Shown here one piece after another: positions 14,542 through 51,659 of a stretch of DNA of 64,000 bases (the stretch's first letter is position 1; each line of letters begins with the position of its first letter). Under the pieces are notes generated by a model. The model had not been told where the DNA came from. It searched no databases and saw nothing but the letters and a program-made list of their open reading frames with translations. The stretch is from the IMG/VR virus record IMGVR_UViG_3300050821_001073. One strand, 5' to 3'. The DNA is from an uncultured virus (IMG/VR IMGVR_UViG_3300050821_001073). Lineage: Duplodnaviria; Heunggongvirae; Uroviricota; Caudoviricetes. Position numbers and translations under genes: made by a program.

Positions 14542-14694
14542 TCAAGCGGAAACTGTGAAATTATCGCTGTAGCTGCTTACATACCAAACCGTACTGCTAT
14601 GGTGCCAACCGCAGGAGCGGCTCGTATGCTCCTCAAGTGAGTAGCTTTTCACATAAACAGAAGACCAGCTCCGTGGTTGCGCGATTAGAATCAC
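14542..14694 (-). CDS. Ser/aromatic-rich micro-peptide family member (50 aa)
   Basis: GTG start: MILIAQPRSWSSVYVKSYSLEEHTSRSCGWHHSSTVWYVSSYSDNFTVSA; GTGA-coupled. Confidence 0.65.
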   Translation of the reverse strand: MILIAQPRSWSSVYVKSYSLEEHTSRSCGWHHSSTVWYVSSYSDNFTVSA

Positions 14695-15954: not shown

Positions 15955-16481
15955 GATACAATCTCCAGTAGCTCCCCAAGATCCAGCATCCGATAGCGAC
16001 GTTTGCGGCCTATTATCTCATAGCCCCAGTTCCCAAAATGGCCATCGATATCCTTCTGTTTCAAGAATTCAGCTATCTCCTTCTCGTAAGTCTCTATCTC
16101 TTTGCAGCCTTCGTCTATCACTTCATACCGCTGCATTACAGTCACTCCGGTTTCAAAGTTATAGTAATGGATCTTAGGCAGAAACCGTCGAAGGCCGCTA
16201 TAATGATTGTCCGCGAGAATGGTGTGGTAGGCTAGGATCTCGTTCTTAGTGTGCTTGACACAATACTTCCAGTCCTTGCCACTTAGGATGTGGGAATCTC
16301 CATAGATGCAAGGAAACTTAACCACGATAGGCAGCTTGTCTACACTATAGGCTCTACGGAACGCACCTTCACCGACTAGCTTTAGCTCCGGTGCCCAGTC
16401 GCCTACGGAAGCTATATCATGCAGGTGTGCTACATGCTTCTCTTTCATGTGCCTAAGGAGCTGATTGAGTGTTAACTTCAT
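15951..16481 (-). CDS. protein-kinase-like fold protein
   Basis: GEGAFR.AY (Gly loop), VVKF (Lys), NE (helix C), DGHFGN (catalytic loop), DLG; start MKLTL is ATGA-coupled. Confidence 0.7.
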   Translation of the reverse strand: MKLTLNQLLRHMKEKHVAHLHDIASVGDWAPELKLVGEGAFRRAYSVDKLPIVVKFPCIYGDSHILSGKDWKYCVKHTKNEILAYHTILADNHYSGLRRFLPKIHYYNFETGVTVMQRYEVIDEGCKEIETYEKEIAEFLKQKDIDGHFGNWGYEIIGRKRRYRMLDLGELLEIVS

Positions 16482-16684
16482 AATGATGCTCCGCAATTTG
16501 AACCTGTCATAGTGCTTATACCAGAGACTCCCGATATAGAACAAGCCATTGTACTGCATCTACCTCTTAGCTGGTGTTCCCAGGGTGCCACGTAACCTCT
16601 ATATCTGCGATATTCAACTGTCTCATAAAAAGCCATAGGAGTTATCCAGTTTCTATCGAGTAAAGCGCCTATTCTGAAAATCAT
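16478..16684 (-). CDS. probable micro-peptide family member (68 aa)
   Basis: MIFRIG...CSISGVSGISTMTGSNCGASL; ATGA-coupled to both primase and kinase. Confidence 0.5.
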   Translation of the reverse strand: MIFRIGALLDRNWITPMAFYETVEYRRYRGYVAPWEHQLRGRCSTMACSISGVSGISTMTGSNCGASL

Positions 16685-19073: not shown

Positions 19074-19121
19074 GTATCTCCTTATTTATCTATCATATCG
19101 CGTTTAGAGTGTTAAGTCAAC

Positions 19122-19268
19122 CTATTTGTACCTGTTCCAGATCCATGCGTTGTAAGTGTGCAACACGCCTCGTCTATTAGACGACTTAGAGCTAAAGGAA
19201 TCGTTTGCACTTGAGAAATAACAGATTCCAGACAGACTTCGGTAAGGGTGCCAAGGTACGAATATCAT
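19122..19268 (-). CDS. micro-peptide family, PWH subtype (48 aa)
   Basis: MIFVPWHPYRSLSGICYFSSANDSFSSKSSNRRGVLHTYNAWIWNRYK. Confidence 0.7.
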   Translation of the reverse strand: MIFVPWHPYRSLSGICYFSSANDSFSSKSSNRRGVLHTYNAWIWNRYK

Positions 19269-19432
19269 AAATATCCCCTCCAGCCTCTATATAACCACAA
19301 TTCCGGTCTTCGACCGGCTGTCAATGAAGCAAAGCATTCATACGATTCGGAATTATAGCATAAAAACCCACCAACGCTAAGTTTACCGCTAGCTGATGCT
19401 CCAAATTTGCTGAATAGAGGTATGAATATCAT
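19265..19432 (-). CDS. micro-peptide family member (55 aa)
   Basis: MIFIPLFSKFGASASGKLSVGGFLCYNSESYECFASLTAGRRPELWLYRGWRGYL; AAGGAG RBS. Confidence 0.7.
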   Translation of the reverse strand: MIFIPLFSKFGASASGKLSVGGFLCYNSESYECFASLTAGRRPELWLYRGWRGYL

Positions 19433-19462: not shown

Positions 19463-19591
19463 TTAGTTCCAGAGCCACGATATGAAGGATTGGTTCATGC
19501 CCCGTGGCCGAGAGTATGTCTGAGTAGAGCTAGATGAGACGTAGCTACCTCTGTACATGGATCGGCGAAGATGCCAAGGTGTAAGTATCAT
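19463..19591 (-). CDS. micro-peptide family, PWH subtype (42 aa)
   Basis: MILTPWHLRRSMYRGSYVSSSSTQTYSRPRGMNQSFISWLWN. Confidence 0.7.
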   Translation of the reverse strand: MILTPWHLRRSMYRGSYVSSSSTQTYSRPRGMNQSFISWLWN

Positions 19592-19743
19592 ACTTGCTTC
19601 CAGTACCAGGGTAGGCTTGAGTTAATCGATCCTGGTATCCATGATGATCTTGAGTAATGGACAACAGAAATAGAGCAGTAGCAGTAGTCCCAACCCATCA
19701 TACCACTATAGCTTCGTTTTATGTGCCATGGTGCGAAGATCAT
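19588..19743 (-). CDS. micro-peptide family, PWH subtype (51 aa)
   Basis: MIFAPWHIKRSYSGMMGWDYCYCSISVVHYSRSSWIPGSINSSLPWYWKQV; ATGA-coupled to helicase. Confidence 0.7.
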   Translation of the reverse strand: MIFAPWHIKRSYSGMMGWDYCYCSISVVHYSRSSWIPGSINSSLPWYWKQV

Positions 19744-23347: not shown

Positions 23348-23494
23348 TTATTTCCAGAGCCATGGGAGCATTGTGTTGACTCCATTGCTCATACTAGAGG
23401 ATAAAGACCTCCAACTATTGCTACTCGAATAGAATCTCTCAGTATAGACCCCGCCACTATTGCTTCTGAATATGTGCCAAGGGCAAAAGATCAC
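23348..23494 (-). CDS. micro-peptide family, PWH subtype (48 aa)
   Basis: GTG start: MIFCPWHIFRSNSGGVYTERFYSSSNSWRSLSSSMSNGVNTMLPWLWK; GTGA-coupled to HNH gene. Confidence 0.7.
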   Translation of the reverse strand: MIFCPWHIFRSNSGGVYTERFYSSSNSWRSLSSSMSNGVNTMLPWLWK

Positions 23495-25935: not shown

Positions 25936-25998
25936 CAAACATTGTGTGATCTCCTATTACTTAGATCATAAACGTATTCGATACGGTTGTCAAGCTTA

Positions 25999-26154
25999 TT
26001 ATGTGTCCTCTCCACATATACTAGAAGCATAGGCTCCTGCCCAACTCCGATTCCAGCCAGTATGATGGCTGCTCCGTGTAAGCTCCCACCTGCCGTAGTA
26101 TCTCCACATTGCCGCAGAGTGAGCGTCAAAAGCTGCTGTTTGAAACAGTATCAT
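25999..26154 (-). CDS. micro-peptide family member (51 aa)
   Basis: MILFQTAAFDAHSAAMWRYYGRWELTRSSHHTGWNRSWAGAYASSICGEDT. Confidence 0.7.
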   Translation of the reverse strand: MILFQTAAFDAHSAAMWRYYGRWELTRSSHHTGWNRSWAGAYASSICGEDT

Positions 26155-27711: not shown

Positions 27712-27888
27712 CTAACTTCCATAATAACTCCTGTAAGCATGGCTACTGATGCTAATGTCCCAACCACTATGATGGCTAACATTTCCTATCAAAGTTTCGA
27801 CACAGCAGTTTTTACGTGTATAGAAGAACATAACAAGTCCTTGTGTGTTGACGCCTTTGTAGCGCGTTCTCATTGGTACAAATATCAT
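27712..27888 (-). CDS. micro-peptide family member (58 aa)
   Basis: MIFVPMRTRYKGVNTQGLVMFFYTRKNCCVETLIGNVSHHSGWDISISSHAYRSYYGS; AGGAG RBS and TTGACA-N17-TATAAT promoter upstream. Confidence 0.65.
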   Translation of the reverse strand: MIFVPMRTRYKGVNTQGLVMFFYTRKNCCVETLIGNVSHHSGWDISISSHAYRSYYGS

Positions 27889-27930
27889 CGTTTGCTCCTA
27901 CATCCATTATAGCCGTATCCGGTCCGCTTG

Positions 27931-28086
27931 TCAAAACCTATCACTCACAGATGCCCAAACCAAACTGCTCTTGGAAGGCAAGAAGATGACACTATCACCA
28001 GAGAAACTTCTGTAATAGTACTTACATTGACTGCTCCAGTTAGCAGAACTAAACGACCCGTATACTTGAACTGTCTTCAGGATCAT
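27931..28086 (-). CDS. micro-peptide family member (51 aa)
   Basis: MILKTVQVYGSFSSANWSSQCKYYYRSFSGDSVIFLPSKSSLVWASVSDRF. Confidence 0.7.
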   Translation of the reverse strand: MILKTVQVYGSFSSANWSSQCKYYYRSFSGDSVIFLPSKSSLVWASVSDRF

Positions 28087-28094
28087 AGTTACCT

Positions 28095-28274
28095 TTAAAA
28101 GTAATCAGACATAGAGTTCCTATGCTGCCCGACTCCGGATGTAGATACTGCGCACATACCTACTCTAGATAAATTCAGCCAGTCGCTACGATGGTCACCT
28201 ACACTCTTACTTGACCATGAAGCAGCAAACCCGCATAGTGAACCTGATGAATTGTATACTATCCGCAATATCAT
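28095..28274 (-). CDS. micro-peptide family member (59 aa)
   Basis: MILRIVYNSSGSLCGFAASWSSKSVGDHRSDWLNLSRVGMCAVSTSGVGQHRNSMSDYF. Confidence 0.7.
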   Translation of the reverse strand: MILRIVYNSSGSLCGFAASWSSKSVGDHRSDWLNLSRVGMCAVSTSGVGQHRNSMSDYF

Positions 28275-28281
28275 ACGCCAC

Positions 28282-28443
28282 CTACCAATCCGAGCTGAAT
28301 GAACCGGCTCTGAAATGCGAAATTGAACAATAGAATTCATTAGAGCGTGACCAACGTCGTCGCTGGTGACAACTATATATCGGTTCGCTTCTTAGAAGTC
28401 CCCAACTCCATGATCCTTTACCAGAATTTATATTAAGGATCAT
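28282..28443 (-). CDS. micro-peptide family member (53 aa)
   Basis: MILNINSGKGSWSWGLLRSEPIYSCHQRRRWSRSNEFYCSISHFRAGSFSSDW. Confidence 0.7.
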   Translation of the reverse strand: MILNINSGKGSWSWGLLRSEPIYSCHQRRRWSRSNEFYCSISHFRAGSFSSDW

Positions 28444-28641
28444 TTACCAAGCTCCTGACCAAGACGTTTGACAGAAATACTTAGCGCCAGTGAGTCGGTC
28501 TATGTGCGTTCCTGTGTGCGAGCACATATATCCAGCACACCTTGAGGCACCCGCAACCTGGACCTTCCAGGGCACCGCGCTTGTAAAGAATTGTCCGCTA
28601 GATGCCGACGCAGCAGGAGTAAGAAACGTCCTAAGAATCAT
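28444..28641 (-). CDS. micro-peptide family member (65 aa)
   Basis: MILRTFLTPAASASSGQFFTSAV...SRCAGYMCSHTG...YFCQTSWSGAW. Confidence 0.7.
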   Translation of the reverse strand: MILRTFLTPAASASSGQFFTSAVPWKVQVAGASRCAGYMCSHTGTHIDRLTGAKYFCQTSWSGAW

Positions 28642-32855: not shown

Positions 32856-35800
32856 TCAAATTGAGAACAGGACAAACCTCCGTCCTGTCCGTTACAGGAC
32901 TTTTGTGTAAATTAAAATTTTATCATCTGACTTTTTTCCTGGCCGCGAATTTTTACTATCTGGCTTTTTGTCCAGAGTAAATTTTACCAAAGGCACTTTT
33001 GTCGGGAGAATCCTGGAATATCTGACTCCAAAGCGTTCGCCGTACGGTTCGACCTATAGTCTTCAGTGATAGCGGCGTGCTCAGCATCGATCCATGTCTG
33101 CTTTTGCGCTGGTGTAAGGAACGGCCATGCGTCACGTGTCCCTGTGTTCATCTAGTGCCTTTCGTTGGTTGCGTGTAGCTGGTGTAGACTGCCCTTATGA
33201 GCGAGTCCAGTTCGTTCAACAGCCCCGCACTAGTCGCAGCTTGTATAAAGCCTTGCATGACGTTCCTTGCCCCGTTGCGAGTGCCTGTATAGCGTCCGGC
33301 GCAATAACTCCACGTGGCGACTGCTAGGACGGCCAATAGTTCGTATTGCGTTCTGTCCATTTGAACCTCCAAGTAGAGACACGAATACGCCAGCGCACTG
33401 CGGCTAGCATAGTCATGCCCCGAATTTGAGAATCAAAGAAGTTAATTGGTTATTGTCCAACCTGCCTTATTGAGTCGCCACACTTGCGCGGGGTACTCGG
33501 ATAGGTCTATGGCCTTGCTCATCTTTGAGATGGCCTTGATGACGGACTTAAGAGTCCGATGGGCTCGCTCATAGGACGGAAAACCAATTGTGCATGAACC
33601 TGCAAAGACTAGGTAGAATTTCATATAAAAACCTCTGAGGACGCATCGTGTACGCGTCCTCTGTTATACCGTTTCGGTTTGCATTTCAGACACGATCAAT
33701 AACACCGCGTCTTGTTGATTTTCGACTTTTATAGCGCGGGCCAACTTGCGAACTGTGCCAACTGCATCGGCTCGTGCTAGAATCTCTATCGTGAGTGACT
33801 TCTCTTGTTGGTTTTTGTAGTACCCTGTACTGAACTGAACCGTGAAGCTATCGAACTTATCTTGCACCAGTGCCTCAATAGCTTCGCGGTTCACGTCTTC
33901 GGTATAGATCTTGTACAGTCTCATGGTTTCGTCCGATAGAACTTAATGATGAACAAACCGACACTTGCCGTTGTCCATCCGTTAGTGTGAAGCTTCTCAG
34001 CTTCTTTGAGTCCCTTTAGAGTGCTGGTATCTACGCTTTTGTACTCAATTTTCGCCATTAGAATGTCGCCACACCAAACTCATTAGCGAGTGCAAGGGCT
34101 TCGCTTAGAGTCAGTTGTCCGGATGAGTATCCATGGCGGATAAGCTTGAGAGGTGAAGTGCTGGACAACAGGAGCGTACCGTTGTCAGAGAATGCATCGA
34201 AGTAAGCAAAGTCGTTCTCACGTATAACCATTGTCGTTTCCTTTGGCCTTTGGCCGGTTTGATTGGTTTACTGTTGCGAGTGTAGCTCACTCGGAATGAG
34301 TTGTCAAGCCTTATTTTCCAGTATCCATCCAAGACTTAATACCGGAATAAGTGTATTTGATGCCAAGTCGCTTACACGTGGCCTTGAATGCTGGACTATC
34401 TTTGTTGTAAGAACCTTTCACATAAGCAGCCGTCATGCGATTTACTACAATTGGAACGTCTAAAGTGTTTGTCCAAGCATATCGATCCGGATACTTGGTC
34501 ACTGCAAGGGCCAACTCCTCAGCGTACACTTGCCAGAATTTATCGAACCTATCCATTCGCTCGGCAGCTAACCTTGCTTCACTATTGGGTGCGCCGACTG
34601 CTATAGATCCATGTTCAAGATGATTCATTGTCTCAACTCCTGTTCAGAGTAGTCACTCTGCTCAGACGGATTGGAGGTTATCCGCCTTGACCGATTGACT
34701 AGCCATTCTTCTCGACTGGTGTCCCCTTAGCTGCAAGCTTCTTATTGCGCCGTGCCGTTGTGTTTATTCCAAAGTCTTTAAGAGACTCTCCGCGTTTCAA
34801 CTTGGGCAGTGTGCTGAATGTGCCCGCTAAAGTATCGATACTGCTAGGTCCTACGTATTCAGGTTCCTGTCTGTTATTTCGTGCCATGTTAGTTCATCCT
34901 CTCTGGATTGGTTTCTTCGGTTGCGATTATTGCCCAATAGGTCATTGGGCGGAAGTTATCGTCGTTCCTGAACTGTGCCTTAAGTGTTTCAAGGCTAATG
35001 TCTCTGATGTCTTTCAGTAGTCTGTCGAGCCCTTGGTTGTTCATTGTCTTATTCTCCCTTGTTAAGAGTAGTATCGGCAGTTCGCCGCAAGACTTTAGCG
35101 TAATTCTTCTGGCACAATCGGCCATTTCATTCTGACTTCATCACGTTCGTTTGTACCTACTATCACCATGCGCAACTCGGAGTTGATGTAGCCGGATTCA
35201 ATGCCGTACCAGCGTGAGCCCGCTCCCGTGATAAGTTCTAGAGCAACCATATCACTCTTAATGCAACTCTTGTGCGCATTAGCCGGATGAATCTTACTTC
35301 CAATCACTTCTAATCTAAATGCTCCCAAGTTATTGTGAATAAGTACTGTAGTTGGTACGTAACGCGGATTCATGTCCATTTTGTCCTTTTTCCTCTGGTA
35401 TGAGACTAGCTCATATGGTTTGTTAGGTCAAGTTACTTTAGTGACTCCAAGGGCTGTGAATCCAGACTCCCTTAGACTCTTTACCGCAACGGAAACAAGC
35501 TGTCCAGATACGGCCATTACTGTGAACTTTCATCCGGTTGCCATGGCGACAGAAGGTGCGCCGTACGAGATTCAAAAAGCTATTGACTAGGTTCACTTGG
35601 TACGCTCCTGATTCACTAATGCCTGATCTTCAAGGCGCAACTGGTATTCATCATCTGCGTTTAGCTCATCCTGCTCAGCGTCTAACGCTTCCCATAGACG
35701 TATCGTAGTGTCCATGCGTTCTTCGGCAGTTGCTTTCTTTGCCCGCTCAGCAAGTACGGCGCGTGATTCAGGTATGATATACATTATTTACTCCCGTTCA

Positions 35801-35997: not shown

Positions 35998-36378
35998 TTA
36001 GCCAGCGAGTCCCCAATATGTTACCCCGTCGAATTCGATGCTGGTGTAATCGTATTGCAACTCCCGTGCCGCTTTTTCCCAATCGATACAGTTGTTAGGC
36101 CAACCGGCTTTAGCATCGACCGCTCCAATATCATCGGCGAAGTCCATGGCGTATTGCTCAAAGTAGCTCTCACGCACCAGTACTACGCCGTCATTCCACT
36201 CTGAGAAGTTCTGTTGTCCGTCATCACAGAAGTTGCTTAGATCGGCGAACTCATCGGCATCTGTCCAGTCTTCTAACTCTTCTCGTGTAAGATCTTCACG
36301 TTCTGAGGTTAGGTCGGCCAAGCGTTCAATAACGCCACGTGAATCAAGTATGTCGGCAGTGTTGTCTACGGTTCTCAT
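35998..36378 (-). CDS. ArdA-like acidic antirestriction/DNA-mimic protein
   Basis: very D/E-rich; C-terminal IDWEKAARELQYDY resembles ArdA IDYE..ARDL. Confidence 0.55.
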   Translation of the reverse strand: MRTVDNTADILDSRGVIERLADLTSEREDLTREELEDWTDADEFADLSNFCDDGQQNFSEWNDGVVLVRESYFEQYAMDFADDIGAVDAKAGWPNNCIDWEKAARELQYDYTSIEFDGVTYWGLAG

Positions 36379-43044: not shown

Positions 43045-44576
43045 ATATAGTATGGTGTAAGACAGGAGAATAAGACAATGATTGATCCAAGAGGCATCTT
43101 ACGCAACGTAGTTACAATCACCGAAACACCTAGTGCAACGCTGATCCTAATGGAATGCGGCCACACAGGATCGTTTGCACAGCACTTCCATTACGATGCT
43201 AAAGACCAGAGAAGATGCGTTCAGTGCTTGCCGAACTATGAAGAGATGCTGAAGACCAGACAGTAGCCGAATGTACTGTTAAGTTCGGCCAATAGCTGCC
43301 GATAATACATTCAACAAGGGAGAATAAGACAATGAAGAATATCAAGGTATTAGCGGCAGTTAACTTAGATGCACTAGAAGATGGTCAGATAGAAGTTGAA
43401 TCCAGTTTCGATACCATCGCGGAAGCAAAGAAGAGAGCTAAGTACTACCTAACCACCGAATACCAGAACGTTTGCGAAGCAGCTACCCGCTTAACCTATT
43501 CGCAGGTTGTTGTCAACGACATAGTTATGTATGATTACGTCAAGCCCTAACAAGATTAGAGTTCGAGTGAGCATGATGTGAGTGAATGACCCTGGCCTTG
43601 AGTAAGCCAGGGTTTCTTACGTGGCCGGACTCTCCTGCGTACCGCGTACGCTGACGTAAATCGGCCATATGTACTCTGGCAATTGGTATAGGAAAGAGAT
43701 AGGATAACAACAGTAAGAGGAGAGAAGGACATGAGCAAAGAACAGTTAGAGAACGAACTGGCAAGACTTAGAGAAGCAGTGTTAGACCTGCTAGACGTGA
43801 TTGACAACAAACCGGGTGATGACCTAGGCCAGTCTGCTATGGCACTCGCTCTAATCCAACTAAGGGAGCTAACCACGTAAGCATACCTAATTGCCTCCAA
43901 CCGGGCCAATAGCATCGCAACGCTTCGGACCTTAGTACAAAAATACTATTGACACGGACCTAGTTTTAGGATCTAGTTTTATCCTATCTCGCAGTCAAGA
44001 GGACATAAGTCTAAGGCAAGCCAAGGGCCAAACGATGGCAACGAACGTGCTACACACAGCAACTCAAGGGCCAAAGCACGGCCATAAACGTGCTAGGGTC
44101 CCCTTTTCGAATCCGAGGGGTGCCGGGGGGAGTCTCGGTGCATCTTTGTCGGAGGGTGGTGAGGCCGGGCGGAAAACATTAGATGCATTTAGGTACCATA
44201 TTACTATGTAGTGACTATACCCCTATAGAACCAATAAGATACGTATCAGTACGTAAACCCCACCTGCAAGATAAATCTATACGTTTATCTGACATGTCAA
44301 TTTGGAATGTCAAATCTGGCAGGATCTCGTCCCTTCTATTGGGTCCCCTATGACCTACATACGCGAGGGTATACGTATGTAAAATTTATACTATTGTGAG
44401 GGGTCTTGTACAGTTTAGGCGGATGTACATGTGGCATGAACGTAGGCAATTAATGAACAAGGCAGTTCTTTGGAAGGGATTTGTGTCTTCTGGAGGGTTC
44501 TTATAGGTAGGGCTATAGGAATATATGAAGTATCATAGGCAGGGTTTATAGTGGAGCTTGGTGACGGTACAGGGAG

Positions 44577-44729
44577 TTAGTACTTGGTACTAAAGCCAAG
44601 ACTGATAAGTGAGCGAGAAGACCGGCTACCTTCCCAGTAAGGACTACCTTCACTGAAGCACATCCCACTCGATAGCCCACAAAAGTTCTGACGGATGAAA
44701 TGATGTGTGAACCTATTTATTAGAATCAT
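44577..44729 (-). CDS. micro-peptide family member (50 aa)
   Basis: MILINRFTHHFIRQNFCGLSSGMCFSEGSPYWEGSRSSRSLISLGFSTKY; AAGGAG RBS. Confidence 0.75.
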   Translation of the reverse strand: MILINRFTHHFIRQNFCGLSSGMCFSEGSPYWEGSRSSRSLISLGFSTKY

Positions 44730-44758
44730 TAGAACTCCTTACAAGCCCTTACCTTTCT

Positions 44759-44917
44759 TTACCATCTATTAATATCTTGGTAGCTACGGTAATACCTAGA
44801 ACTGAACGCTACATGCATACCGGCGCATGCGCTTGTACACTCTGAGTCAATCCTTGAACTTAAAAATGTACTTGACGAAGAGGCAAGGAATCTGGAAAAC
44901 ATATTCATTAGAATCAT
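44759..44917 (-). CDS. micro-peptide family member (52 aa)
   Basis: MILMNMFSRFLASSSSTFLSSRIDSECTSACAGMHVAFSSRYYRSYQDINRW; GAGGAG RBS. Confidence 0.75.
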   Translation of the reverse strand: MILMNMFSRFLASSSSTFLSSRIDSECTSACAGMHVAFSSRYYRSYQDINRW

Positions 44918-44934
44918 TAGAGATCTCCTCAGCC

Positions 44935-45087
44935 TTAGTATCTGGTAAAGCCACGACTAACTATGCATCCGTCACTCCAAGATGTACTATAAATATGGGA
45001 AAGGTCACTTGCGGTCCATTCGCTAGATCTACTGAATTCCATATAATCCTGGCAGAGCCATCGAACGTACTGGTTTATTAGAATCAT
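44935..45087 (-). CDS. micro-peptide family member (50 aa)
   Basis: MILINQYVRWLCQDYMEFSRSSEWTASDLSHIYSTSWSDGCIVSRGFTRY; GGAGG RBS. Confidence 0.75.
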   Translation of the reverse strand: MILINQYVRWLCQDYMEFSRSSEWTASDLSHIYSTSWSDGCIVSRGFTRY

Positions 45088-45097
45088 AGTGCCTCCA

Positions 45098-45256
45098 TTA
45101 GAAACTCAGCCAGTTCGTACTTGTGTATAGACCTGCTGAAAAGCTAGCCATCCCGGTGGCATTGCGAAATCCTGCGGATTTACTCAAACCAGTAATATAG
45201 TACTTATAGGTTCTAGACTGCATGACAAAGTTAATCGTTATCGGAATCAGGTTCAT
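45098..45256 (-). CDS. micro-peptide family member (52 aa)
   Basis: MNLIPITINFVMQSRTYKYYITGLSKSAGFRNATGMASFSAGLYTSTNWLSF; AGGAG RBS. Confidence 0.7.
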   Translation of the reverse strand: MNLIPITINFVMQSRTYKYYITGLSKSAGFRNATGMASFSAGLYTSTNWLSF

Positions 45257-45269
45257 ATATAGTTAGCTC

Positions 45270-45455
45270 CTACTTAACAAACCCACGGCTGCTGAACATA
45301 TAGTTACTGGTGCTGTACATACCCACTTGCCAACCAAGACCTATGTAACTTCTATGATAATACCCACTGCAACTAAGATAGCAAGCCGGACCGCTAGCGT
45401 GTTCTCCACAAACGCTCACCGTGCCATAAGGACATTGTCTTCTAGTTAGAATCAT
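45270..45455 (-). CDS. micro-peptide family, CPYG subtype (61 aa)
   Basis: MILTRRQCPYG...YSTSNYMFSSRGFVK; TAATG-coupled. Confidence 0.75.
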   Translation of the reverse strand: MILTRRQCPYGTVSVCGEHASGPACYLSCSGYYHRSYIGLGWQVGMYSTSNYMFSSRGFVK

Positions 45456-45640
45456 TAGAACGTCCTTATAACGAATCCCACACTGCCCGAGAAGTCACTA
45501 CTATGACTAAACCATCCGCCGCTAAACCCGGCGTTACTCTTACGATTGCCACAGGAGTTACTCCTCCACCAGCCTTTTCCGCGTGAGTCGGTTGCGTGAC
45601 TATACTGCCCATAGGGGCACGGTGTCCATGACAGAATCAT
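45455..45640 (-). CDS. micro-peptide family, CPYG subtype (61 aa)
   Basis: MILSWTPCPYG...WFSHSSDFSGSVGFVIRTF; TGATG-coupled. Confidence 0.75.
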   Translation of the reverse strand: MILSWTPCPYGQYSHATDSRGKGWWRSNSCGNRKSNAGFSGGWFSHSSDFSGSVGFVIRTF

Positions 45641-45813
45641 CAAAAGCCTTCTTTGCCACTATTGCTCCTGAAATGGCCCAGTGTCCAACTGTTCTCGAAG
45701 CCACTACTAGCACCATTTAGATAGCCTAAATGTCGGCTAGTTAAGTCAAAATAATACTCCCAGGAGTCACGTGGTACTAGCCAATAAAATGAGCTGTATC
45801 TTAATAGTATCAC
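45640..45813 (-). CDS. micro-peptide family member (57 aa)
   Basis: GTG start: MILLRYSSFYWLVPRDSWEYYFDLTSRHLGYLNGASSGFENSWTLGHFRSNSGKEGF. Confidence 0.7.
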   Translation of the reverse strand: MILLRYSSFYWLVPRDSWEYYFDLTSRHLGYLNGASSGFENSWTLGHFRSNSGKEGF

Positions 45814-45986
45814 TTGACATCTCCTGAAATGCTAGAGTACATATTACTGCTTCTGCTCGCCGCCCAATCTACGTTCTTACTGAATATAAGGGTCGATGAC
45901 CAGCTTGACCGACAGGGACTGTAGGAATACAGACTCATGGCACTTCGGCTCCATCTACGGAAGTTCTGGAAGCGCATGACTATCAC
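45810..45986 (-). CDS. micro-peptide family member (58 aa)
   Basis: GTG start: MIVMRFQNFRRWSRSAMSLYSYSPCRSSWSSTLIFSKNVDWAASRSSNMYSSISGDVK. Confidence 0.7.
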   Translation of the reverse strand: MIVMRFQNFRRWSRSAMSLYSYSPCRSSWSSTLIFSKNVDWAASRSSNMYSSISGDVK

Positions 45987-46135
45987 ACGACACCACTCAT
46001 ACTCTCGCGGTAGTTGGAACTTCTGCTCATAATATGCTGGTGGCTGAAACTAAAGGCATATCCGCCATCTCCAGTAAGACTACAGACCTTAAAGCAACTC
46101 TTACTTGGCCATGCCGCAAATGTATATAGTATCAT
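45983..46135 (-). CDS. micro-peptide family member (50 aa)
   Basis: MILYTFAAWPSKSCFKVCSLTGDGGYAFSFSHQHIMSRSSNYRESMSGVV. Confidence 0.7.
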   Translation of the reverse strand: MILYTFAAWPSKSCFKVCSLTGDGGYAFSFSHQHIMSRSSNYRESMSGVV

Positions 46136-46145
46136 ATTTACTCTC

Positions 46146-46316
46146 TTACTCTCTACCGCAGTAACTCAGCCATTGATCTCCGTTATAGCCAGCGGTTTGG
46201 TACTGACTCATACTGCTCCATGCAAAGCTACTATAAGAATGTCTACATGACCGTCCCGTGTAATCCTCGCCGCAACTACTCGGATAATCGTGCCTCATCC
46301 AGTTCTTTAGTATCAT
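46146..46316 (-). CDS. micro-peptide family member (56 aa)
   Basis: MILKNWMRHDYPSSCGEDYTGRSCRHSYSSFAWSSMSQYQTAGYNGDQWLSYCGRE; GGAGG RBS. Confidence 0.75.
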   Translation of the reverse strand: MILKNWMRHDYPSSCGEDYTGRSCRHSYSSFAWSSMSQYQTAGYNGDQWLSYCGRE

Positions 46317-46444
46317 AGTCCTCCGCAATAGCTTAGTGGCCATGTGTTGCTGTAGCTCTTATTGAACGTACTATAGCTCAGCGCATAGCCATTGGAAAAG
46401 CAGTAAATGTAACTATCTCTGCGCATTTGGATGCTTAGGATCAT
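46313..46444 (-). CDS. micro-peptide family member (43 aa)
   Basis: MILSIQMRRDSYIYCFSNGYALSYSTFNKSYSNTWPLSYCGGL. Confidence 0.75.
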   Translation of the reverse strand: MILSIQMRRDSYIYCFSNGYALSYSTFNKSYSNTWPLSYCGGL

Positions 46445-46533
46445 AGACCTCACAACTATCTCCAATTCCGGCGAATCATCAGATACGTACCGTATACGCC
46501 GTTTTAGAGGCGTCCAGGAATTTAGACCTGGGA

Positions 46534-46680
46534 TTATCGGTGCCCACTACTGTAACTAAACAGATTGGGATAGTTCACAGATTTATAACTTCCACAAGTG
46601 CTCCATCTTGTCCAATTGCTAAGACCCCATCTAATATTTGGATCACGAATCCACATCCGAAAAGGAGCTACTAGTATCAT
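46534..46680 (-). CDS. micro-peptide family member (48 aa)
   Basis: MILVAPFRMWIRDPNIRWGLSNWTRWSTCGSYKSVNYPNLFSYSSGHR. Confidence 0.75.
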   Translation of the reverse strand: MILVAPFRMWIRDPNIRWGLSNWTRWSTCGSYKSVNYPNLFSYSSGHR

Positions 46681-46853
46681 CTTCCACCGCATTCGCTAAA
46701 GTAATAGGCCGTATGACAGACCGATCTTGCGAAACGACCGCTGTCATGAGAGTCTCTAATATAACTAGTAAACTCTGAATTAGTGCGACTCCACATAAAC
46801 CATGACGGTCTGCGATCAATGTACCACTGTCGGTATGGGATGTTTAAGATCAT
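46677..46853 (-). CDS. micro-peptide family member (58 aa)
   Basis: MILNIPYRQWYIDRRPSWFMWSRTNSEFTSYIRDSHDSGRFARSVCHTAYYFSECGGR. Confidence 0.75.
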   Translation of the reverse strand: MILNIPYRQWYIDRRPSWFMWSRTNSEFTSYIRDSHDSGRFARSVCHTAYYFSECGGR

Positions 46854-46999
46854 CTTCCACTACTCTTACTAAAAAATTCAGTACTACAAGAGCGGGAATA
46901 CATAATACTGCTAGTAAACTGATGGCTACTACGGCTCATCCAATCACCCATTAACTCCATAGATGCCCAATAGTATCGATATGCAGCGGTTAGGATCAC
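46850..46999 (-). CDS. micro-peptide family member (49 aa)
   Basis: GTG start: MILTAAYRYYWASMELMGDWMSRSSHQFTSSIMYSRSCSTEFFSKSSGR. Confidence 0.75.
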   Translation of the reverse strand: MILTAAYRYYWASMELMGDWMSRSSHQFTSSIMYSRSCSTEFFSKSSGR

Positions 47000-47157
47000 A
47001 GGTATCTGACCAGTGTGCAGCATGCCACAATAAGCAACGCAAATCCTATTATACCGTAAACAATCAAGGCCGCAGGCACAGCCGTAGAGACATCAATCGC
47101 GTCCCATCCGAGTACCAATAGTGTTAGCGCCAAACCCGACAATGCAAATAGAAACAT
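46996..47157 (-). CDS. 53-aa 2-TM membrane protein heading the peptide array operon
   Basis: MFLFALSGLALTLLVLGWDAIDVSTAVPAALIVYGIIGFALLIVACCTLVRYL; GAGGAG RBS. Confidence 0.7.
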   Translation of the reverse strand: MFLFALSGLALTLLVLGWDAIDVSTAVPAALIVYGIIGFALLIVACCTLVRYL

Positions 47158-47179
47158 AGTTATCTCCTCAACTATCTAT

Positions 47180-47208
47180 AGATTACCAGATCACAGGCCG
47201 ATTGTCAA
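47180..47208 (-). promoter_or_regulatory. sigma70 promoter driving the main peptide array
   Basis: TTGACA-N17-TAATCT with extended -10 TG. Confidence 0.7.
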
Positions 47209-47214
47209 GCGGAA

Positions 47215-47340
47215 TCACCAGGGGGCACTATAACGTACACCAAAAGATTTTGACATAGGAAAATCTCCGCACCAGCTTTTAACAAGTCTTGGGTAAGAAC
47301 TTCCCAGATCCCATATACGAAAGGCAGTCACTAGATTCAT
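47215..47340 (-). CDS. micro-peptide family member (41 aa)
   Basis: MNLVTAFRIWDLGSSYPRLVKSWCGDFPMSKSFGVRYSAPW; GGAGG RBS, TAATG coupling. Confidence 0.7.
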   Translation of the reverse strand: MNLVTAFRIWDLGSSYPRLVKSWCGDFPMSKSFGVRYSAPW

Positions 47341-47498
47341 TACCAACCTCCACAAGTCGAGAACGCAAAATAGGAACGAGAATACTTCTCATGAGTGCTG
47401 TCACCCCTTCCATTAGAGCATGACCCGAAACTGCACAGCTCCCCGCTCGTGGAGTATTTGAGCAACCTCGCCCTAGTCCAGAAAAATGCTACTATCAT
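47340..47498 (-). CDS. micro-peptide family member (52 aa)
   Basis: MIVAFFWTRARLLKYSTSGELCSFGSCSNGRGDSTHEKYSRSYFAFSTCGGW; ATGA-coupled to DNA polymerase. Confidence 0.75.
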   Translation of the reverse strand: MIVAFFWTRARLLKYSTSGELCSFGSCSNGRGDSTHEKYSRSYFAFSTCGGW

Positions 47499-50020
47499 TT
47501 GCTCCAAACTTTCGATACGTTGTACTCTGAAGTCATCTCTACTCGCTTCATCTTAACAGCAGCGGCTCTCTTAAAGCAATCCTGAATATGCTTTGCAACT
47601 TCTTCCGCGTATTGCGTAGGAACGTGGATCACTAGTTCATCATGTATCATGCTCCTAAACTGTGCCTTATACTTAGGTAACACATGGAAAAGAAACGGTT
47701 TACCATCTTTATCGAATCCTGAACCTACGGCTATCTTGATAATTGAGACGTTACCCGATTGAATCTCATGATTCTTACCCTGGCGCTCAATGCTTCCTAG
47801 AAGTCCTCGGTATTCCTTCTGGATCTGACCATCCGAAGGCTGTACCTTTAGCAGTTCTATCTTCTCGTCCTTCTTTGGCTTCCTTTCGTTCTCTTCTATG
47901 AACTTACTAATGGCCGATTCCTGAACAGCTTCCGTCGCATACTTCTTGGCTGTCTCCCAGTTCGGATTAGGAAAGATCCTACGGCGTCCGAAGAAGTCTC
48001 TGGCTTCTTTCTTGATCTTCGCACGCTTGCCTGCGTCTTCTAGGTAGTTCCAGATGTTAGGAAATGCCCTGCGGTGCCTCTCCATGATGTCTTTACACTC
48101 GTTTACAGTCTTACCCGTATCCACGGCCAGCTTATTGGGACCGCCACCGTTCACTAACAGGAAGGTACAGGACTTGGTGCCGTTGCGTAGGTCTTCATGC
48201 TGCGGACAACCCTTGCCGCACTTGCCTTTCTTGATTTCACCATTAGGCTGTAGTGCGTAGTACCCGCAGGCGTCCGTGGCCAACATAGGCCATTCTTGGG
48301 CGTATAGAATAGCAGTTGAGATAGAGTGTAGATCCTCATTCCTTTGGAACGCTTCTATCCAGGTTTTGTCATTAGCCAATTCTGCCAGGATGCGAAGTTC
48401 AGCGCCTGACATGTCACACGTAATCAATACGTAATCCTCTGCCTTAGTCTGACAAAGTTGCCTGCAAGTCAAACATCTCGGACCTTCGTTCATAACCGTG
48501 TCAAAAGTCGTCTCAGATTCACAGCATATGGAAATCTGTATATCAGGATTCGGACCATCCGCTTCAAAACACTCCCGAATCTCTTTACCCTTGGGAATGT
48601 TCTGAGCATTCGGCTTGCTGCTGCTCGTTCGGCCTGTTTCGGCTTCGTACTGATTGAATTCACTGTGGAGTCTACCGTCGCCTGGGTGCAGGAAACCTTC
48701 TTCCTTCTTCGGTCCAGTCATCCAGGTAGTAGCCCACGTCATGCCATAGGTGTCCACTTCCTTATTAATCGAACGGAAGTCTCGTAACAACTTGATAACA
48801 GGGATCTTAGCGAAATCTGCCAAGGAGTCATCGTTCGTGTCTTTCAGCTTGCTCAGTCCTGACATTTGTTTCAATGCGGTCAACAACTGATCCGTAGATG
48901 AATAGTTAATTAGTGCCTGACCTTCACATGTCGGCAGTAGCTTACGTAAGAATGTCAGTCGCTTGCTAATAACCGATTGAATCCCTTTTATGTTCTCTTT
49001 CTCTTCCTTACGGGCTGTCTCTAGCATGTCTAATGCTTTACGTAACAAGGCTTTACGTTCAGGATCTTGTTGTCTACGTACCTCGCCCTTTAACTTAACC
49101 TCATTAGCTGGAACAATCATAAGCGCCTTCCACTGCGCATGAAGTTCATCGGATTGTTCCTTAGTTACAATGTCTTTCGTTTTATCTCCCACAATTGGAA
49201 TGAAATATTTGTCCATTGCGGCGATCACTTCTACCAATTCTGCTTTCTTAGCATCCGTTCTGGCAGTCCACTTGGCAACGTTAAGGTTCTGGCCATGAAC
49301 GTGCATATCCACGAACGCTCCGATAGCATCATTTTCCAACTGGATGACTTCTAACAGTCCGTCCTTCTGCGCTAGGCGCAATTGTGCAGTGCGTATGGCA
49401 AAAGGTAGGCGCGTATCCAACGCTGCGTACTGTATCTGTTCAGGAGTCAATGGCGTGTGAAGATCGAACGATGTCTGGAGTTCCTTATCGATCTGGACCT
49501 CGAAGTACCTCTGCATAAGCGTTTCCATGGAGAACTCTGAGTACTTCTTTAGACTTATCTCTCCTGCGCGTATGCAGCGTTCTGCTAACATACCATCGTA
49601 CAGTCCGTAGATCCTTCTGCCGAAGTTCCAGTACATGTGAGTAGCTTCAAATGAGAGGTTGATTCCTAGCTTAATGTGTTGATTAGAAAGGAGTACCGAG
49701 TCACAAGTTTCCAGCACCAGCTTGAGTCCCTGTGTCATGTTTTTCCCATAATGACCCTGACTGTTAGCTAATACTTCCCCGTTACCATCCACGAACGCAA
49801 GTAAGTCCACGACATACTGCTCATCCTTGTTTCCGAATTGAAGGGTACGCACTCCGCGCCAGTAGAAGTCGTTGGTTACATTCGTTTCAATATCGAAGCC
49901 CACGTCCGTAACTCGGTCAAGAAAACTTGCCATCTGACCAAGACTCTTCCCATCCACAACCAGTGTTACATTGTTTGGTGGGTTCAATATTAGCTGTTTA
50001 AACTCTTGGCCTTCAATCAT
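47495..50020 (-). CDS. polA: family A DNA polymerase with 3'-5' exonuclease
   Basis: FDIET, YAALD, TGRTSS..PNAQNIP, DMSGAELR (motif A), R...K...F (motif B), IHDE (motif C). Confidence 0.95.
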   Translation of the reverse strand: MIEGQEFKQLILNPPNNVTLVVDGKSLGQMASFLDRVTDVGFDIETNVTNDFYWRGVRTLQFGNKDEQYVVDLLAFVDGNGEVLANSQGHYGKNMTQGLKLVLETCDSVLLSNQHIKLGINLSFEATHMYWNFGRRIYGLYDGMLAERCIRAGEISLKKYSEFSMETLMQRYFEVQIDKELQTSFDLHTPLTPEQIQYAALDTRLPFAIRTAQLRLAQKDGLLEVIQLENDAIGAFVDMHVHGQNLNVAKWTARTDAKKAELVEVIAAMDKYFIPIVGDKTKDIVTKEQSDELHAQWKALMIVPANEVKLKGEVRRQQDPERKALLRKALDMLETARKEEKENIKGIQSVISKRLTFLRKLLPTCEGQALINYSSTDQLLTALKQMSGLSKLKDTNDDSLADFAKIPVIKLLRDFRSINKEVDTYGMTWATTWMTGPKKEEGFLHPGDGRLHSEFNQYEAETGRTSSSKPNAQNIPKGKEIRECFEADGPNPDIQISICCESETTFDTVMNEGPRCLTCRQLCQTKAEDYVLITCDMSGAELRILAELANDKTWIEAFQRNEDLHSISTAILYAQEWPMLATDACGYYALQPNGEIKKGKCGKGCPQHEDLRNGTKSCTFLLVNGGGPNKLAVDTGKTVNECKDIMERHRRAFPNIWNYLEDAGKRAKIKKEARDFFGRRRIFPNPNWETAKKYATEAVQESAISKFIEENERKPKKDEKIELLKVQPSDGQIQKEYRGLLGSIERQGKNHEIQSGNVSIIKIAVGSGFDKDGKPFLFHVLPKYKAQFRSMIHDELVIHVPTQYAEEVAKHIQDCFKRAAAVKMKRVEMTSEYNVSKVWSK

Positions 50021-50167
50021 TTACCAACCTCCACAAGCACTATAATAGTTTGAATCACTCTTACTAAAAAACCAATAACTAGTATAGCAACTTCGGTAAT
50101 AGCCTCTATTATGGGAGTTGCAAGGTGTTGATGGCATTCTTCGTATCTGTCTTGTAGTAAGGTTCAT
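50021..50167 (-). CDS. micro-peptide family member (48 aa), leaderless, first cistron of the pol operon
   Basis: MNLTTRQIRRMPSTPCNSHNRGYYRSCYTSYWFFSKSDSNYYSACGGW; TTGACA-N17-TAGGCT 6 nt upstream of ATG. Confidence 0.75.
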   Translation of the reverse strand: MNLTTRQIRRMPSTPCNSHNRGYYRSCYTSYWFFSKSDSNYYSACGGW

Positions 50168-50229: not shown

Positions 50230-51026
50230 GTCTGTAAAGAACCGTCAGGGCAATAGGGTACCGTTTCTCTCTGGATATACAGTCTCTCAGTGGTTGCCCT
50301 TTTCTTAGGTCTTATCCCCTGCTCTGTATTCAGATCGACACACCATGTACTTATTGCACGATGATGGTAGAAGCGGTAATGCCTTATCGTTAGATTGTAA
50401 ACTAGCCTATAGATCTGTTATGTCCTAGGCCGATTTACGTGGATTTCAACGTCCCAGTACAAGTTTAGCTAAGCAGTGTGTGTTCCAAAGCTTTTGCACG
50501 CTACGAGATGTTTCTTGGAGTTCAACTCCGCACCAAACGGGTAACACTTGTCTGGCTCTCTATTGCGATTGTGTAACTTATACCACTGGCCCCGGCTTTC
50601 ACGCGGCCATCGCTTGCTGAAGGCGTCTCTTTTGGATCGGTTCCCACGGATTCTAATTATCCGCTCTTACTACAGTCACGCTACTAGGTTCCCGGCTTTT
50701 ACACCGTTCCAGTTTGAGTTTCCGATTTATTCTTTTTCCAGCACTTTTGAAGAAGCCCGAAGGCTCGTTCAACCCGTGTGGCGGAACTGTGTTCAGTTGG
50801 TTGCACAAGCATTACCCGTATGCAGCAACTGCTTTTGGTTTGGAGACATGACCACCTAAGGTCAACGTACTCAGTACGTGTAAAGGGTTCGCTCTCCAGC
50901 GTGTGATGACTTGTCTTAGTCAGTATTTATCCCGACCCAAGCCTTAAAGCCCTTGTACATTTAGCCCTTTCGGGCTCCCCTGTATTACTGGATCTGACCA
51001 GCTACAGAGGCTTTTTCTTGACTACA
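50230..51026 (-). ncRNA. candidate large structured non-coding RNA (~750-800 nt)
   Basis: own TTGACA-N17-TATTCT promoter (51032-51060); no credible ORF; GAAA and UUCG tetraloop hairpins; 5'/3' long-range complementarity. Confidence 0.6.
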
Positions 51027-51118: not shown

Positions 51119-51262
51119 ATGGTCATATCAGTAATAGGAATTAGTCGCAGTTCTCTATGGAAAAGATCCGTAAATGAAGGATGGTACTGTAGCCAAAGTA
51201 CCTATTATGCAGGGTCAGCTTGCGGTAGAGCCCATTACAAAAGTTTCTGTGGAGGGCTGTGA
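51119..51262 (+). CDS. micro-peptide family member (47 aa)
   Basis: MVISVIGISRSSLWKRSVNEGWYCSQSTYYAGSACGRAHYKSFCGGL. Confidence 0.75.
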   Translation: MVISVIGISRSSLWKRSVNEGWYCSQSTYYAGSACGRAHYKSFCGGL

Positions 51263-51346: not shown

Positions 51347-51492
51347 TGGTTCTAATGGCTCGCATTTGGAAGACATTACAGTATAACCCCTATAGACCTT
51401 CCAGGCCGTTTAGTTCATGGTCAGAAGGTTGGGTTAGCAGCGCAAGTTCGACGTATAGGCAGGCCGACTTCAGTAACTGTGGAGGTTGGTAA
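51343..51492 (+). CDS. micro-peptide family member (49 aa)
   Basis: MMVLMARIWKTLQYNPYRPSRPFSSWSEGWVSSASSTYRQADFSNCGGW. Confidence 0.75.
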   Translation: MMVLMARIWKTLQYNPYRPSRPFSSWSEGWVSSASSTYRQADFSNCGGW

Positions 51493-51659
51493 TGGTCCTG
51501 GCGAGAACCAACCCATACGCTGATTCCTATAGCGACCGTTATATAGGCTCGTTTTCGGGCAACGGCAGCAGCGGACACGGAACCATGGCGAGTTATATTC
51601 AAGGTTGGAGAATATCATATAGTCATAGTGAGAATTTAAGCTTCTCTTCAATGATTTAA
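51492..51659 (+). CDS. micro-peptide family member (55 aa)
   Basis: MVLARTNPYADSYSDRYIGSFSGNGSSGHGTMASYIQGWRISYSHSENLSFSSMI. Confidence 0.7.
   Translation: MVLARTNPYADSYSDRYIGSFSGNGSSGHGTMASYIQGWRISYSHSENLSFSSMI

Follow-up and report, generated by a model that had tools for sequence, protein, structure and literature searches.

A tandem array of 16 micro-genes behind the DNA polymerase of a soil phage probably belongs to a lineage-specific family of translated relay cassettes

The 64,000-nucleotide stretch analysed here (hereafter the window), from an uncultured Caudoviricetes virus filed as IMGVR_UViG_3300050821_001073, belongs to a phage whose genome measures about 92 kb, about 28 kb of which lie outside the window. 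Directly behind its DNA polymerase gene the window carries an array of 16 short open reading frames (ORFs), arranged head to tail on one strand. The analysis establishes the anatomy of these units, their coding signatures, their restriction to one lineage and their turnover as whole units. On balance, we interpret the array as part of a lineage-specific, fast-turning-over family of translated relay-cassette micro-genes that are selected on their heads, their reading frame and their amino acid composition, a reading in which we have moderate confidence.

The first-pass annotation, made from the letters of the window, had described 16 family ORFs running head to tail at positions 44577–47498 downstream of a DNA polymerase, interrupted only by a gene for a protein with two transmembrane helices and by a spacer of about 90 nucleotides. 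All of these elements were found. The ORFs are on the minus strand and are 126–186 nt (41–61 codons) long, the lengths having been taken after the unit starts were refined. A family-A DNA polymerase of 841 residues (47495–50020, minus strand, from the ORF list; Pfam DNA_pol_A and 3'-5' exonuclease) directly precedes them on the same strand, and its stop codon overlaps the start of the first unit, u01 (ATGA). From there the array runs, always on the minus strand, through u01 (52 residues beginning MIVAFF, 47340–47498) and u02 (41 residues beginning MNLVTA, 47215–47340, called as gene P0122 in a public assembly) to the membrane protein gene (53 residues, 46996–47157), which has a strong ribosome-binding site (RBS), a homologue in the related contig L062 and a weak match to DUF2970 (E 0.0028) that is below the cut-off. 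Unit u03 (49 residues, 46850–46999) opens with a GTG over the stop codon of the membrane gene and is followed by u04 (58 residues, 46677–46853) and u05 (48 residues, 46534–46680). The untranslated spacer, 89 nt long (46445–46533, minus strand), leads to u06 (43 residues, 46313–46444), u07 (56 residues, 46146–46316), u08 (50 residues, 45983–46135), the two GTG-initiated units u09 (58 residues, 45810–45986) and u10 (57 residues, 45640–45813), u11 (61 residues, 45455–45640), u12 (61 residues, 45270–45455, called gene P0123), u13 (52 residues, 45098–45256, called gene P0124), u14 (50 residues, 44935–45087), u15 (52 residues, 44759–44917) and the last unit, u16 (50 residues, 44577–44729, called gene P0121). 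ORFs of at least 40 codons on this one strand cover 92.1% of the region, which exceeds the cover in all 300 shuffled versions (mean 44.5%, maximum 67.9%), so the tiling is more than chance.

The junctions between units are as stereotyped as they had been said to be, and every junction sequence quoted for them was recovered: GGAAGATGAT[AC] at u03/u04 and u04/u05, GGAGGACTATGATA at u06/u07, GGAGGTTGGTAATG at u01/u02, and CTAATGATTCTA at u11/u12, u14/u15 and u15/u16. Repeats at the DNA level, 12–27 nt long, are confined to junctions. Starts overlap or abut the preceding stop (ATGA, GTGA, TGATG, TAATG), and the recurrent C-terminal residues ..CGGW, ..CGGR and ..CGGL are the Shine–Dalgarno sequence (GGAGG) of the next start read as protein. 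The sequence TGTGGAGGTTGGTAA precedes both u02 and the polymerase gene. In the latter instance, it is the tail of a family member located in the promoter region before the polymerase (48 residues ending ..ACGGW, 50021–50167, minus strand), and it coincides with the polymerase RBS. With starts placed over previous stops and tails that bear a Shine–Dalgarno sequence, ribosomes would be passed from unit to unit. We thus picture a unit as a cassette of three parts: a stereotyped ATG/GTG-ATH-YTN head (Met-Ile-Leu/Phe/Val) set over or directly against the stop before it, a core that varies and would drift at an approximately neutral rate, and a tail that would supply the Shine–Dalgarno sequence of the next start.

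The array looks like 16 real micro-genes that are truly translated. The tiling, the RBSs, the synonymous head codons and the in-frame indels all point to translation. Predicted pairing with the anti-Shine–Dalgarno sequence is at or below −5 kcal/mol at 12 of 17 starts, compared with 65% of 34 long ORFs and 14% of 500 random sites. Of 30 family members, 27 have Ile at residue 2 (12 ATA, 8 ATT and 7 ATC codons), and every one has Leu, Phe or Val at residue 3, for which nine different codons are used. When four members of the PWH subfamily (described below) are aligned at the nucleotide level, all gaps are multiples of three, not one of the 813 aligned columns is out of phase, and conservation is lowest at the third codon position. 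G occupies codon position 2 in 36% of cases in the units versus 17% in long genes. The units of L062 keep open frames despite nucleotide identity at the random level. Off-frame stops were set aside as a line of evidence, their enrichment being modest (7.4 per 100 codons in the +1 frame versus 5.5 ± 0.6 after codon shuffling).

The same observations bear on the possibility that the array consists of RNA genes or regulatory DNA repeats with chance ORFs, or that it is one long gene written in an alternative code. Codon usage unlike that of long genes and DNA-level repeats that occur at junctions only would both suit such an origin. However, the tiling, the RBSs, the synonymous head codons and the in-frame indels do not. 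Searches for tRNA and tmRNA genes found none, no Rfam family reached the gathering score, the unit RNAs fold no better than their shuffles (mean z 0.01 in sense and −0.31 in antisense orientation), and reading TGA as Trp, TAG as Gln or TAA as Gln yields no long ORF on the array strand (the longest encodes 124 residues). Neither a single long ORF, with any one stop read as sense, nor a structured RNA, the two alternatives raised with the original description, explains the region, and we regard this class of explanation as very improbable.

Further candidates were considered and dropped. A programmed frameshift that would fuse the units to the polymerase finds no slippery site in the sequence. 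Attenuator leader peptides do not fit because the main array has no downstream gene. Two-codon minigenes of the lambda bar type are alike in the ATG-ATA start only. The target of a diversity-generating retroelement was rejected as there is no reverse-transcriptase domain in 58 long ORFs and no long repeat pair in the region.

The composition of the array peptides is strongly biased. Serine accounts for 18.4% of residues, and 104 of its 154 codons are AGY. Enrichment of 1.6- to 2.8-fold is seen for Trp, Tyr, Cys, Phe and Arg; Lys, Glu, Asp, Gln, Ala, Val and Leu are underrepresented, and 13 of the 16 peptides carry a net positive charge. The Ser-x-Ser arrangement is weakly in excess (37 observed versus 25.9 expected; z of 2.6 at lag 2 and 3.2 at lag 6), and strict alternation, with Ser at every second residue, does not occur in the array peptides. 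At one column of the alignment, at least 90% of members have Ser. A leave-one-out profile test on 34 members gives a mean z of 1.11, with 27 values above 0 and eight above 2, a positional signal across these sequences that is weak but real. AlphaFold2 models of two peptides have mean pLDDTs of 56 and 52 and lack secondary structure; this is weak evidence, and it agrees with a prediction that the peptides are probably disordered.

Many small Cys/Ser/aromatic-rich peptides in a row with a common N-terminus could also be precursors of a bacteriocin-like product or other ribosomally synthesized and post-translationally modified peptide (RiPP), with many variable cores. Their organization speaks against it. 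The common N-terminus spans 3–11 residues and not the 20 or more of a leader, the number of cysteines varies from zero to four per unit with no conserved pattern, the units reside inside replication operons, and Pfam searches of the 58 long ORFs found no radical-SAM, YcaO, lanthipeptide, cyclase or export gene. A RiPP cluster is therefore highly improbable.

The family is not limited to the array. When the window was searched for the head motif combined with the composition, about 14 further candidate members emerged, nine with composition scores of at least 0.3 and five weaker, so that the family is spread over the early and replication region, a feature missed by the first-pass annotation. 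All of these candidates are encoded on the minus strand, the strand of the genes in that part of the window, and most are found directly behind a large gene; with one exception, head-plus-composition matches in the minus-strand gene block are on the gene strand. The 30 members total 4,845 nt, or 7.6% of the window. Four members (19588–19743, 19463–19591, 19265–19432 and 19122–19268) follow an SNF2-type helicase gene, and one (23348–23494) follows an HNH endonuclease gene. The latter and three of the helicase-side units form the well-aligned PWH subfamily, MIF.PWH..RS...W.W., which has 11 invariant columns. Five candidates (28444–28641, 28282–28443, 28095–28274, 27931–28086 and 27712–27888) are located behind a DUF2201 peptidase/VWA gene and one (25999–26154) behind a PD-(D/E)XK nuclease gene. 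A 68-residue candidate of weaker composition (16478–16684) overlaps the stop of the primase-helicase gene, and another of 50 residues (14542–14694) has a GTG start. On the plus strand, two micro-ORFs (51119–51262 and 51486–51659) have the family composition, and one of them ends in ..FCGGL; the rightward transcription unit at about 51.1–51.7 kb may thus contain one or two more members.

Three near-consensus sigma-70-type promoters (TTGACW, 17 nt, TATGAT/TATAAT) are present on the minus strand at 19092–19120, 25965–25993 and 27906–27934, whereas 0.29 are expected by chance. Each is at or just past the end of a micro-ORF: the second comes immediately after the candidate behind the nuclease gene, and the −35 box of the third overlaps the stop codon of a unit. 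Their position at unit ends suggests that the family occupies the tails of transcription units. In the early and replication transcription units, family members would accordingly fill the 3' ends and, in one case, the 5' leader. A promoter-like block in the array itself (47180–47208, minus strand), composed of TTGACA, 17 nt and TGGTAATCT, precedes the membrane protein gene and is conserved in L062. It was read by eye and missed by a consensus scan, which between 43500 and 50600 found no more promoters or terminators than occur in shuffled sequence (9 versus 12.3 and 4 versus 4.9, respectively). Directly after u16, an untranslated stretch (44401–44576, minus strand) is rich in C and poor in G (32–33 and 10–13 per 100 nt, respectively). 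Its base content resembles that of a Rho-loading site, and Rho-dependent termination may close the leftward operon there. The spacer between u05 and u06 had been described as a hairpin, and two small stem-loops do exist there; nevertheless, its folding is no better than that of shuffles (z −0.26). The stem-loops are adjacent (46475–46525, minus strand) and have similar loops of the UCUAAA type (UCUAAAUU and UCUAAAAC).

The comparison material is of uneven independence. An IMG/VR record matches the window over 14,221 identical bases, and this record, the window and sequencing run X1 probably represent one sample, so that the record and the run are probably not independent support for the array. 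A second soil study, X2, is available as contigs rather than reads, at a depth of 2–4×. Its contigs are pieces of the same phage and pieces of a relative about 86% alike; among the polymerase differences listed, most are spaced by multiples of three bases. The remaining comparison sequence is L062, a 4.7-kb contig whose polymerase is 78% identical to that of the window. Another polymerase, P0002, 77% identical, is found on a 65.7-kb contig, and the nearest named phages by polymerase are the Tunturiibacter phages Tunturi_3 (43% identity) and Tunturi_4 (39%). As a separate observation, assemblies break at about 43800–43830, where the IMG/VR record stops at 43800 and two X1 contigs at 43804 and 43826. 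This may be a genome end or a repeat. Short pieces at 43296–43336 and 44288–44312 are repeated elsewhere in a 49-kb X1 contig.

As judged by similarity searches, the family is specific to one lineage of soil phage. Within 8 kb of the polymerase there are no such ORFs in 57 IMG/VR loci with polymerases 33–46% identical to that of the window, and in 21 of these loci the polymerase is followed by genes of ordinary size. A family profile matched none of nine relatives (91–100% complete, polymerase identity 41–45%) and gave 18 matches in the phage's own record, a control that is circular since the profile was trained on these very members. A blastn search with the array found no match in 50,697 phage records. 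The profile of the 16 units retrieved four matches from 5.8 billion protein clusters, all of them the phage's own proteins. A search of the ESM Atlas provided no lead (best score 0.89, low recognition). The profile of the best-aligned subfamily had a single match among 1.84 billion representatives, a perfect tandem-repeat protein that was judged spurious.

L062 is the contig in which a counterpart of the array can be read. Its polymerase stop is followed by two micro-ORFs (54 and 59 codons), the promoter-like block, the homologue of the membrane gene and the start of a u03-like unit. The composition of its units is like that of the array (Ser 18.6%, Gly 13.3%, Tyr 9.7%, Trp 7.1%). At the nucleotide level, however, the units of the window and L062 are 32–42% identical, which is the random level, compared with 72–78% for the polymerase. 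The head of u03 and that of its counterpart r03 have six of ten residues in common, three of them via synonymous codons, and then none of the next seven. L062 has three units before the polymerase and the window has one, while the flanks are 83–85% identical. The array is thus not an identical, conserved block, the finding that the original description had named as contrary to its reading: unit sequences cannot be aligned and copy number differs. The divergent promoter region (window 50258–51009, L062 13–822) is 83–85% identical, compared with 74% for the polymerase, and a plus-strand gene (50548–50859) is contained in it.

One X2 contig lacks a unit. It joins position 46317 to position 46447 with three other letters in between, the first position immediately preceding the start codon of u07 and the second that of u06. 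Because both breakpoints are at start junctions, exactly one unit, u06, is absent, and the spacer leads straight into u07. The X2 spacer carries 12 extra bases at 46479–46482, and within u05 the likeness of the X2 relative to the window falls below 80%. The best matches between units of different phages are not syntenic: L062 r02 resembles u01, and r01 resembles u09 and u07. The missing u06, the three units versus one before the polymerase and the non-syntenic matches support the proposal, made at the outset, that cassettes are gained and lost at junctions. Recombination between alike junctions would add or remove units.

Other parts of that proposal fared less well. Neighbouring units were said to resemble each other more than distant ones, and they do so weakly (mean z 0.72 for 29 pairs no more than two apart versus 0.39 for 91 others). 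Two of the four neighbour pairs named, u11/u12 (z 3.6) and u03/u04 (z 3.4), stand out and the other two do not. Likeness is not a privilege of neighbours, as the distant pairs u09/u14 (z 4.8) and u07/u12 (z 4.1) stand out too. Local duplication followed by divergence is plausible and weakly indicated, paralogy of the array cores being barely detectable (13% of 120 pairs with z above 2). The divergence had been called rapid, but it does not appear faster than neutral: fourfold-degenerate sites of the polymerase are only 42.5% identical between the window and L062, so that unalignable cores fit a roughly neutral rate.

Cores that drift at about the neutral rate are also what one would expect if the units were translated filler or selfish relay cassettes with inert peptides. 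A cassette that brings its own start and the next RBS would fit between a stop and the start that follows, leaving coupling intact and no RNA naked, and could spread by junction recombination. The anatomy agrees with this: heads overlap upstream stops, tails are the RBS of the next gene, including that of the polymerase, and the C-rich, G-poor tract starts directly after the last translated unit. So do the scatter of the family through many slots of one lineage only and the difference in copy number between close relatives. Yet the composition of filler should decay to that dictated by base content, whereas a codon-phased bias is kept in the paralogues and in L062. Furthermore, the main array has no downstream gene to which ribosomes could be relayed, 30 members that occupy 7.6% of the window are costly for the phage, and the PWH subfamily retains its 11 invariant columns. 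We consider inert filler unlikely, although clearly less so than RiPP precursors or a non-coding array.

The case for a role of the peptides themselves is made mainly by the Ser/aromatic/Arg bias, which is phased by codon and outlasts saturated divergence. Under the interpretation we prefer, selection would maintain the head, the open frame and the composition, and the peptides would be produced alongside the replication enzymes with no particular fold or sequence required. We infer that they act by bulk properties, as sticky binders of low specificity for nucleic acid or for host or phage proteins. A more far-reaching and tentative idea, which we rate as doubtful, is that about 8% of the early region constitutes a self-renewing repertoire of about 30 composition-selected, disordered micro-proteins, perhaps acting collectively. 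They could form a sticky matrix or condensate that binds RNA or DNA and surrounds the replication enzymes; another possibility would be a hypervariable library of peptide binders directed against host defences.

A number of results count against selected, translated micro-genes, and they temper our confidence. Codon usage scores about −0.2 log-odds per codon in frame in all 16 units compared with +0.29 in long genes, the ORF frame is the best of six in eight units with an antisense frame scoring higher in the other eight, and a protein collection has called genes for only four of the 16. The anti-Shine–Dalgarno sequence used above is the general bacterial one. In a leave-one-out profile test of the 16 units without their first five residues, 14 score no better than their own shuffles and one beats all of its shuffles. 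The divergence of the cores is compatible with zero constraint on sequence. The independent support for the array consists of the low-depth X2 contigs and the 4.7-kb L062. Finally, searches returned no domain, homologue or confident fold: none of the 16 units matched Pfam and the best PHROGs E-value was 0.052, so that the proposed function is read from composition.

Other features of the region are of interest in their own right. The polymerase contains a Cys-rich insert at about residues 499–608 (CC..C..C...C, later C..C...C..H), in which C585, C601, C605 and H608 are invariant across 18 relatives. The insert resembles a zinc-binding module, one characteristic of this clade of polymerases. 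In the early region, two minus-strand ORFs at 33664–33924 and 35998–36378 have matches below the Pfam cut-off to S-adenosylmethionine lyase (E 5.6e-4) and ArdA antirestriction protein (E 2.2e-3), respectively, and are possible anti-restriction genes. An Sm-like/DUF6948 gene was sought and not found among 84 small ORFs (Pfam, E up to 0.1) and 58 long ORFs (E up to 0.001) of the window, and a six-frame search of the 42.7-kb record G001 with PF22253 had no matches, about 28 kb of the phage being outside the coverage of these searches.

Full-text literature searches did not find such arrays described, and a text search of a review of phage small proteins (PMC11323111) found no relevant term on them. 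Phage genomes are rich in tiny unannotated genes, and most gene callers and databases miss units such as these. If head, frame and composition are kept while the sequence drifts, the family would offer a clear natural example of selection acting on bulk properties. With the cassette design, small genes can increase in number within operons and leave these intact. Should the peptides indeed bind nucleic acid, form condensates or block host defences, they would represent a new class of phage effectors.

Three known systems invite comparison. The silent cassettes of the Borrelia vls locus are arranged head to tail, have conserved ends and variable middles, and serve antigenic variation. Like them, the phage array has about 15 units in a row, short conserved junctions, divergent cores and signs of recombination guided by the junctions. 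Unlike the array units, each of which has a start, a stop and an RBS, vls cassettes remain silent, have no starts and are copied to a single expression site; neither such a site nor a recombinase is evident here. The second system is the low-complexity, disordered regions of eukaryotic RNA-binding proteins and FG-nucleoporins, which are rich in aromatic residues, Ser, Gly and Arg. The likeness, one of composition only, lies in aromatic "stickers" set among Ser/Gly spacers, the paucity of acidic and aliphatic residues and the predicted disorder. These eukaryotic regions, however, are long domains of large proteins, whereas the array products are free phage peptides of 41–61 residues. The closest parallel comes from large phages, in which small, lineage-restricted ORFan early genes populate plastic regions between core genes (the "hyperplastic regions" of T4-type phages). 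The array units are likewise short genes of no known function, wedged between conserved replication genes, present in one lineage and subject to fast turnover; both kinds are expressed with early or middle genes, although this is a prediction for the array. In contrast to such ORFans, about 30 members here are paralogues of a single family whose head is fixed and whose tail bears an RBS, a single slot holds 16 of them in tandem, and it is composition, not sequence, that is conserved. We therefore file the array with the small lineage-restricted early genes of phages, among which it stands out for the number of copies, the design of the cassettes and the fact that only composition is conserved.

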